Below are positions 1 through 338 of a DNA stretch of 338 nucleotides, in pieces (positions within the stretch are counted from its first letter, which is position 1; each line of letters starts with the position of its first letter). A model generated the notes under the pieces. The model was not told the origin of the DNA and made no database searches. It was given only the letters and a program-made list of their open reading frames with translations. A program made the translations under genes and the position numbers. Source of the stretch: Escherichia coli (GTDB lineage Bacteria; Pseudomonadota; Gammaproteobacteria; Enterobacterales; Enterobacteriaceae); NCBI RefSeq assembly GCF_003334355.1, contig NZ_QOWP01000113.1; one strand, written 5' to 3'.

Positions 1-338
1 CTCAGCATGTGGCCGGATAACCGTATCGCCCGTGACGCGCACTATCTTTACCGGTATGACCGTCACGGCAGGCTGACGGAGAAAACCGACCTCATCCCGG
101 AAGGGGTTATCCGCACGGATGATGAGCGCACCCACCGGTACCATTACGACAGTCAGCACCGGCTGGTGCACTACACGCGGACACAATATGCAGAGCCGCT
201 GGTCGAAAGCCGCTATCTTTACGACCCGCTGGGCCGCAGGGTGGCAAAACGGGTGTGGCGACGTGAACGGGACCTGACGGGCTGGATGTCGCTGTCACGG
301 AAACCGCAAGTGACCTGGTACGGCTGGGACGGCGACCG
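1..338 (+). CDS. rhs: Internal fragment (5' and 3' partial) of an Rhs-family YD-repeat protein, conserved core region of a polymorphic toxin; about 112 codons in frame 1
   Basis: Seen in sequence: frame 1 on the + strand has no stop codon across all 338 nt, while + frame 2 stops at TGA 74-76 and + frame 3 at TAA 18-20. The translation contains three YD-repeat motifs: [14 protein letters not shown] (nt 43-84), [12 protein letters not shown] (nt 139-174) and [14 protein letters not shown] (nt 214-255). Established knowledge: the run ...[41 protein letters not shown]... matches my recollection of the conserved Rhs core of E. coli RhsA/B/C-type proteins, upstream of the PxxxxDPxGL core/tip boundary. 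By hand count the GC content is about 62% (209/338), consistent with the known GC-rich Rhs core. Which paralog (rhsA/B/C/D/E or another species' copy) cannot be decided from 338 nt, so the symbol is the generic family prefix only. Confidence 0.92.

Follow-up and report, generated by a model that had tools for sequence, protein, structure and literature searches.

A described counterpart of the locus treated here is the pair of rearrangement hot spot (Rhs) genes of Salmonella Typhimurium LT2, rhs-main together with rhs-CT-orphan, for which recombination between the main and orphan genes was shown experimentally (Koskiniemi et al. 2014, PMC3967940). We analysed a 338-nucleotide (nt) stretch of Escherichia coli DNA (the window; contig NZ_QOWP01000113.1 of assembly GCF_003334355.1), which is part of the conserved core of an E. 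coli clade-I (RhsA-B-C-F type) Rhs gene. The RhsC element of strain K-12, with its downstream partial core (the orphan) and ybfC, contains the window at 100% identity, without a sequence difference; in other strains the same 338 nt are found in different contexts as well. We are highly confident that the core to which the window belongs is a multi-copy substrate for homologous recombination, that the same exact version resides in orphan and full-length genes, and that it takes part in local exchange, gene conversion and rare crossover. Like the K-12 locus, the LT2 locus consists of a full-length rhs gene, its immunity gene and then a core that is truncated at the N-terminus, has a tip of its own and is followed by another gene, and recombination in its shared core fuses the main gene to the orphan tip, as in the fused E. 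coli genes described below (PMC3967940). The shared region measures 1,043 bp at 97.2% identity in E. coli, compared to 522 bp at 95% in LT2, and the fusion is a natural between-strain polymorphism in E. coli, whereas in LT2 it arose in a laboratory-evolved subpopulation (PMC3967940). Silence of the orphan until fusion, toxicity of the tip and its neutralisation by the downstream protein have been shown for the Salmonella system alone (PMC3967940).

For rhs genes in general, Jackson et al. (2009, PMC2935791) proposed that tips are displaced through circular intermediates. This C-terminal displacement model agrees with our observations, in which a core fragment, a tip and a downstream gene form the module gained or lost, and the 1,871-bp unit exactly fits a circular intermediate. 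Other statements of that paper differ from what we found. Clade-I loci of E. coli were described as generally free of dissociated tips, whereas the rhsC site carries a dissociated tip in 2,644 of 5,426 genomes; associated and dissociated cores were described as identical, whereas the K-12 orphan core differs from rhsC by 2.8%; and chromosomal rearrangement mediated by rhs was discounted, whereas we found reciprocal rhsA × rhsB inversions. Work from 1984, as summarised in PMC2935791, had obtained a tandem duplication of glyS by recA-dependent unequal crossover between rhsA and rhsB under laboratory selection. The crossover partners reported here are the same loci, with the same 3.7-kb core homology. 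According to that summary the 1984 product was a tandem duplication, whereas those found here are inversions, in genomes with rearrangements linked to insertion sequences (IS) near the junction; no tandem duplication was present among the resolved rhsA/rhsB junction structures.

The window belongs to a multi-copy Rhs core

We assigned the window by its reading frame and protein family. Frame 1 of the plus strand is open throughout the 338 bases (112 codons), stops interrupt frames 2 and 3, and the G+C content of the window is 59–65%. Amino acids (aa) 1–112 are collinear with positions 935–1046 of the 1261-position NCBIfam model NF041261 (RHS_core; E 7.3e-73, 246 bits; the curated 2,000-bit cut-off is meant for the whole protein and lies out of reach for a 112-aa piece). 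The translation contains four YxYDxxGR(L)-type motifs, the mark of the YD repeats of the Rhs core family, so that the sequence-only reading had recognised the fragment correctly. The segment (window 1..338, plus strand) corresponds to codons ~921–1033 of a full-length clade-I rhs gene, or gene nt 2761–3098.

We then searched the window by megablast in 5,426 complete E. coli genomes (full matches, E 5e-176). The window matched 14,267 places in 3,882 genomes, nearly all of them chromosomal, with 1–8 places per genome and a median of 4; two matches lay on plasmids. The 1,544 genomes with no match fit the report that one pathogenic strain group is without the clade-I rhs expansion (PMC2935791). 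In a sample of 60 genomes drawn evenly down the megablast ranking, 27 held a 100% match, and each of these had 3–5 places; single-copy genomes also occur, and in the sample their best window identity was 99.1%. The expectation of several near-identical copies per genome was thus borne out, and a single hit without paralogues, which the sequence-only reading had named as the finding that would speak against it, was seen in none of the 27 sampled exact-match genomes.

In K-12 MG1655, the window is 100% identical to the orphan core fragment after rhsC-ybfB, 98.8% identical to rhsC (4 mismatches) and 98.2% identical to rhsA and to rhsB (6 mismatches each), giving four copies at no less than 98% identity. 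Identity to rhsD and rhsE is 81.2%, and this division (98.2–98.8% versus 81.2%) marks the subfamily. Column-by-column comparison located seven sites separating the four close copies (window 78..261, plus strand): sites 78, 210 and 261 are private to the orphan, at sites 129, 132 and 191 the orphan and rhsC agree and both differ from rhsA/rhsB, and at site 255 the orphan agrees with rhsA/rhsB and differs from rhsC. Six of the seven are third codon positions and one (site 191) is a second position, and the window protein is identical between K-12 RhsC and the orphan.

The exact sequence occurs in an orphan and in full-length genes

Because sites 78, 210 and 261 are private to the orphan, the full 338 nt are unique in K-12. 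Shorter pieces are not: an exact counterpart in another K-12 copy exists for 64% of window 36-mers, 48% of 50-mers, 24% of 75-mers and 13% of 100-mers, and 150-mers differ from the nearest K-12 copy by just 1–3 bases. Strain GPEC349-628 has three exact copies of all 338 nt: one belongs to rhsC, a second to the orphan lying 1.87 kb downstream, and the third to a full-length rpmE-yiiX gene at a distance of 1.27 Mb. The ambiguous placement foreseen for the window therefore holds for GPEC349-628 and for short K-12 k-mers, and does not hold for the full window in K-12. Reads, variant calls and assemblies over the window are not assignable to a single locus without flanks.

Across the genomes the exact sequence was found in three contexts: in the truncated orphan, as in K-12; in a single full-length gene at the kdp/ybfA-ybfC (rhsC) site, in E2865 and ECCWS199; and in a full-length rpmE-yiiX gene, in O177:H21, ARS-C301, CDF6 and GPEC349-628. 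The frame accordingly behaves in two ways. In the K-12 orphan it is stopped 37 codons upstream of the window, at the stop codon of ybfB, and continuation of the frame through a full core, proposed earlier as a check, fails there; in E2865, ECCWS199 and the rpmE-yiiX genes the full core of ~1,240 codons is read through from a PAAR-type N-terminus. The suggestion of a truncated or orphan fragment is likewise right for the K-12-type exact match after rhsC-ybfB and wrong for the same sequence within full-length genes elsewhere. Since one sequence occupies three contexts, the window alone cannot tell the locus or the kind of gene, which may be a presumably silent orphan just as well as a toxin gene that is expressed.

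The orphan is the most likely context of the window, although this is not provable from the window. That it derives instead from a full-length expressed rhs gene, either a fused gene at the rhsC site or an rpmE-yiiX gene, is possible, though we regard it as doubtful. Such an origin would agree with the exact 338 nt within full-length genes of E2865, ECCWS199, O177:H21, ARS-C301 and CDF6 and in rhsC of GPEC349-628, and with the 5 of 27 exact-match sampled genomes whose best place carries the gene name 'RHS element core protein' or 'rhsC'. It is opposed by the generic product name that 19 of the 27 exact matches carry, the one given to the truncated K-12 fragment by the Prokaryotic Genome Annotation Pipeline (PGAP), and by the presence of the ybfB-orphan junction in 2,644 genomes; the product-name fractions are rough, as the search tool breaks ties between exact copies arbitrarily. 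The full-length rpmE-yiiX gene, whose tip type is present in 2,083 genomes, is labelled 'rhsC' by the annotation pipeline and is followed by 'dsORF-f3'. As rpmE-yiiX is a different site from that of rhsC, the gene name is no safe guide to the locus. The rpmE-yiiX site is position 11 of Jackson et al., the RhsF position (PMC2935791).

Local exchange between rhsC and the downstream orphan

We next compared the K-12 rhsC locus with the fused genes, returning to the orphan as the most likely context. The K-12 gene order is kdpFAB, ybfA, rhsC (4,194 nt), ybfB, orphan, ybfC, ISAs1 remnants and ybgA, and the window occupies positions 8001–8338 of this locus (L001), where it is 100% identical to the orphan. 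Core homology of the orphan begins abruptly and spans L001 7935–8978 (gene nt 2695–3737); it continues for 1,043 nt up to the core end, with 97.2% of positions identical to rhsC, and its first 66 nt precede the window. Together, the orphan and the core segment of rhsC make up a direct repeat whose period is 1,871 bp and whose exact shared tracts measure 131–224 nt. Beyond gene nt ~3737 the orphan tip is unrelated to those of rhsA, rhsB and rhsC, and ybfC follows; the K-12 orphan thus has the make-up of an orphan rhs-CT module, with a distinct tip of its own and a small downstream gene. The ybfB-orphan junction was found in 2,644 genomes, and the orphan-type tip with ybfC in 3,519–3,605.

E2865 and ECCWS199 carry one 4,200-nt gene at this site, the length of a virtual joint of rhsC nt 1–2694 with the orphan, and their ybfA-to-ybfC distance is shorter by exactly 1,871 bp, the main/orphan repeat period. 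The fused gene of ECCWS199 agrees with rhsC at nt 2704 and 2758, and each of the 29 informative sites that follow, from nt 2838 (window 78) onwards, has the orphan-type base. A comparison of K-12 rhsC and orphan with this gene is suggestive of an exchange point within gene nt 2759–2837, an apparent interval covering window 1..77 (plus strand), the left side of which is set by two sites only. About 900 genomes hold the orphan-type tip without the K-12 junction arrangement, and the two examined were both fused. Compared with the virtual K-12 joint, the E2865 fused gene (L006 5241–9440) shows 74 differences, clustered at nt 954–2558, and that of ECCWS199 shows 40. The 5' two-thirds of the core is probably a between-strain patchwork reflecting further conversion events.

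These structures would be explained if the full-length gene and the orphan lying 1,871 bp downstream of it underwent a Campbell-type exchange, leading to gain or loss of one tip and its immunity gene. In the forward direction, a circle made up of core fragment, tip and immunity gene would integrate, as modelled in PMC2935791; in the reverse direction, main gene and orphan would fuse, as in the Salmonella experiments (PMC3967940). By analogy with the Salmonella system, the orphan would be silent until fused to a full-length gene.

Gene conversion between loci

We compared rhsC of GPEC349-628 with its orthologue and with its same-genome paralogue. The GPEC349-628 and K-12 rhsC genes are orthologues, with the same flanks and identical tips (457/457), yet 110 of 3,737 core sites differ, compared to 43 sites in 3,369 nt of flank. 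The same GPEC349-628 gene is identical to its rpmE-yiiX paralogue over gene nt 1711–3647 (1,937 nt, 0 differences), with 35 differences in the preceding 1,710 nt. An identical copy of this rhsC allele is present in KSC9, and the allele is found at no less than 99% identity in 170 genomes (SE11, 99.5%), whereas K-12-type alleles show ~97.5%. Non-reciprocal conversion between loci would keep paralogues closer than orthologues in this way.

Within the K-12 laboratory pedigree, rhsA of the conjugation recipient J53 differs from rhsA of MG1655 at gene nt 1893, 3108, 3123, 3125, 3174, 3177, 3183 and 3231 and carries the rhsB base at all eight (8/8), an apparent conversion tract (nt 1893–3231) arisen within that pedigree. 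At nt 954, both rhsA and rhsB of J53 differ from the MG1655 genes. These comparisons indicate that gene conversion and local one-period exchange are common and leave gene order intact.

In many porcine enterotoxigenic E. coli (ETEC) and other isolates, and in ~250 further genomes, 81–90% of a nikA-nikR/rhs/yibA query was matched at ~96.6% identity in 2–4 pieces. This pattern suggests that the rhs gene at the nik site of porcine ETEC-type isolates carries an rhsA-type tip and yibA, which would reflect an inter-locus exchange of tips, not inversion.

Reciprocal crossover between rhsA and rhsB

We built a chimeric query from the rhsA left flank, the core and the rhsB right flank, which is the junction expected of the 1984 duplication. 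This query gave contiguous full-length matches, and a longer, more discriminating version, used for the counts, matched 19 of 5,426 genomes: 15 J53-derived laboratory strains; FDAARGOS_1249, ET82 and VTB97420v at 100% coverage; and ETEC1748 at 86%. FDAARGOS_1249, ET82 and the same 15 J53-derived strains also carry the reciprocal junction (100% coverage), in every case on the strand opposite the first junction.

J53 carries a published 825,667-bp inversion between IS5 copies at MG1655 positions 3,652,638 and 4,476,957 (PMC5968721), which flips rhsA relative to rhsB. The reference J53 assembly (NZ_CP028702.1) retains nikR-rhsB-yhhH (L016 12001–16236) and yibA←rhsA←yibF (L018 17415–21548), while the J53-derived NZ_CP034595.1 has yibF-rhs-yhhH (L013 14501–18736) and yibA←rhs←nikR (L017 17415–21548), the latter sitting in derived J53 assemblies at the very coordinates of the reference rhsA (117,414–121,547). 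Of the two hybrids, one shows the pattern AAAA|B(18) and the other BBBB|A(18) at the 22 sites that distinguish J53 rhsA from J53 rhsB, and 210 of 210 upstream discriminating sites as well as the entire 3' parts are consistent with reciprocal hybrids. These complementary site patterns show that the exchange was reciprocal. It lies within gene nt 82–3467, a 3,386-nt tract identical in rhsA and rhsB that covers the window homologue (nt 2761–3098). The 15 J53-derived assemblies therefore differ from reference J53 by a reciprocal rhsA × rhsB inversion, of ~745 kb as estimated from MG1655 coordinates, atop the known 825-kb IS5 inversion.

ET82 and FDAARGOS_1249 show a similar association with IS. 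ET82 (NZ_CP101005.1) has the order yibA ← hybrid ← nikR...glgP, ISKpn26, yhiN...yibF → hybrid → yhhH...yhiJ', ISKpn26, glpD..., which is just what would result if ISKpn26 had first mediated inversion of the block that bears rhsB and an rhsA × rhsB inversion had come next. In FDAARGOS_1249 (NZ_CP069459.1), synteny breaks 10 kb from the junction, where copies of IS5 are found. VTB97420v (NZ_CP178690.1) has IS1 beside selB.

Other accounts of the yibF-rhs-yhhH junction were set aside. As part of the classic 143-kb tandem duplication it would have rhs genes 143 kb to either side, where fec/frd genes were found, and the genome holds 4 window copies only. Excision of the rhsB-rhsA interval as a circle and its reinsertion would give the same end product; given the published J53 IS5 inversion, this was replaced by the simpler two-inversion account. 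We do not claim that the rhs inversion was selected for restoring replication-arm balance, as the second inversion of ET82 does not restore overall orientation.

It is very improbable that the apparent exchanges, meaning the three exact copies in GPEC349-628 and the rhsA/rhsB junctions, are artefacts of assembling and polishing 3.7-kb repeats. Mis-joins and the transfer of variants in polishing classically affect repeats that exceed the length of short reads, and a common stock or pipeline could underlie the 15 J53-type assemblies. Both reciprocal junctions were nevertheless seen, with >12 kb of collinear flank on each side, and the hybrid assembly of reference J53 keeps the parental arrangement. 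The junctions recur in unrelated isolates, each with an independent IS partner, and the converted rhsC allele stands at 99% identity or above in 170 genomes, the older finished genome SE11 included.

A limited literature search found no paper on the rhs inversions of J53, ET82 or FDAARGOS_1249, which may not have been described before. The inversions in J53 sublines and two unrelated isolates are relevant to users of J53 as a reference recipient: if the account is true, this conjugation recipient circulates as two chromosomal isomers, an inversion of ~745 kb (the MG1655-based estimate) apart.

Rhs cores as possible conditional rearrangement sites

Several co-oriented copies that share identical tracts of hundreds to thousands of bases constitute a substrate for homologous recombination. 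Such tracts measured 131–224 nt between orphan and rhsC, 1,937 nt between the GPEC349-628 paralogues and 3,386 nt between J53 rhsA and rhsB. The recombination substrate proposed from sequence alone is now joined by its products, namely the 1,871-bp polymorphism, the conversion tracts and the reciprocal inversion junctions. Copy number, identities and these recombinant structures were observed directly; the direction of events and a role for RecA, which is known only from the 1984 genetics as summarised in PMC2935791, are inferred. That the copies are alike merely through recent duplication and purifying selection on the protein, with no ongoing recombination, is less probable still than assembly artefact: the identical window protein of rhsC and orphan and their four nucleotide differences, all at third positions, are what purifying selection would give, but protein selection does not homogenise synonymous sites, a stretch of 1,937 nt is free of differences between same-genome paralogues while 110 sites separate the orthologues, and complementary reciprocal junction patterns and a length polymorphism of exactly one period (1,871 bp) exist.

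The orientation of the copies bears on which products could be recovered. All five K-12 rhs genes lie on one strand, as do rhsC and the rpmE-yiiX gene of GPEC349-628. If co-oriented copies at different loci were to cross over, the intervening DNA would be deleted or duplicated, whereas an IS-mediated inversion that flips one copy would allow a later reciprocal rhs × rhs crossover to be recovered as an inversion. Co-orientation would thus make stable inter-locus products rare and have them follow an IS flip, as in the resolved cases. The IS-linked pattern was seen in three lineages (J53 sublines, the environmental isolate ET82 and the clinical isolate FDAARGOS_1249). We lean, with some reserve, towards the view that Rhs cores are genuine but conditional rearrangement sites, at which a stable inversion arises only after an IS has flipped one copy, deletion otherwise being lethal and duplication unstable. 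If true, this view would qualify the 2009 statement of no rhs-mediated rearrangement (PMC2935791).

Several observations weigh against the view of the core as a recombination substrate and rearrangement site. The window's own context is not decidable from 338 nt, and the end products at the rhsC site do not tell insertion of the tip module from deletion of 1,871 bp. A mosaic structure within the K-12 orphan, with an rhsC-like 5' part and an rhsA-like 3' part, was not significant (maximum chi-square, permutation p = 0.055) and was rejected. Polishing could produce some of the paralogue identity, although recurrence in independent assemblies argues otherwise. Large rearrangements are rare, the rhsA-left/rhsB-right junction occurring in 19 of 5,426 genomes, 15 of which represent one laboratory lineage, and Jackson et al. 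(2009) reject the label 'hot spot' for natural rhs genes (PMC2935791).

The count of 19 in 5,426 genomes, made without direct comparison to IS or rrn repeats, does not show that rhs cores rearrange more often than other repeats do. A mutation-accumulation study attributed 96% of structural variants to IS and ~2% to further repeats, rhs among them (PMC5289635). The term 'hot spot' overstates the natural frequency of large rearrangements, which are rare, not absent, and the inversions counsel moderation both in using the name 'rearrangement hot spot' and in rejecting it outright. The data reconcile Hill's laboratory crossover of rhs cores with the view of Jackson et al. that there are no natural hot spots. 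The window itself is textbook Rhs biology in sequenced and annotated K-12 sequence and is already known; it illustrates the known behaviour of these elements, in which toxin tips are swapped by core recombination and paralogues evolve in concert.

Further features of the window and the K-12 orphan

The YD repeats were located from the translation on the plus strand. Repeat 1 (YRYDRHGRL) lies at window 49..75, repeat 2 (YHYDSQHRL) at 139..165 and repeat 3 (YLYDPLGRR) at 214..240, and repeat 4 starts at 316..338 (WYGWDGD...) and runs on as RL past the window, where K-12 loci read ...WDGDRLTTIQ. Pfam RHS_repeat gave weak matches to the first three (aa 16–30, 44–61 and 70–82, respectively), and TIGR01643 matched at aa 38–61 (E 2.8e-6), over repeat 2. 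The window protein also aligns by sequence to the solved shells of Tse5 (8cp6) and other Rhs proteins associated with the type VI secretion system (best E 2.4e-7). The roughly four YD repeats belong to the beta-shell that encloses the variable C-terminal toxin.

Internal DNA repeats comprise one 16-nt two-copy match, which stems from two of the YD motifs, and an inverted pair of 22 nt, which is weak and taken as chance. An Rfam scan of both window strands gave no family at E ≤ 1. Minus-strand open reading frames (ORFs) of 22 and 63 aa are unsupported and usual for the antisense of G+C-rich coding sequence.

At window 7..9 (plus strand) an ATG opens a 477-aa ORF of the orphan (L001 8007..9440). 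The same Met is internal in full-length RhsC, and the codon is probably an internal core Met, not a genuine start. PGAP annotates the orphan, which we take to be ybfO, as a pseudogene 'missing N-terminus' from L001 7920; a literature search on 'ybfO' returned no relevant paper. Over L001 7563–8000 the orphan core shares its frame with ybfB, the two being separated by the ybfB stop and then 15 AT-rich codons before the core homology begins. This shared frame may be a chance consequence of module joining.

Pfam searches of the orphan tip and YbfC gave no toxin or immunity family, and PF03527 alone was matched, at the core end. At the core/tip boundary (L001 8940–8980), the orphan has PLNPVQYIDSMGL in place of the PLNPISNIDPLGL of rhsC. 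Orphan-type tips, those of intact fused genes included, carry DSMGL as their second DPxGL-type motif. In several genomes, an IS1 copy splits the orphan tip/ybfC region, and the two halves of the match lie ~780 bp further apart.

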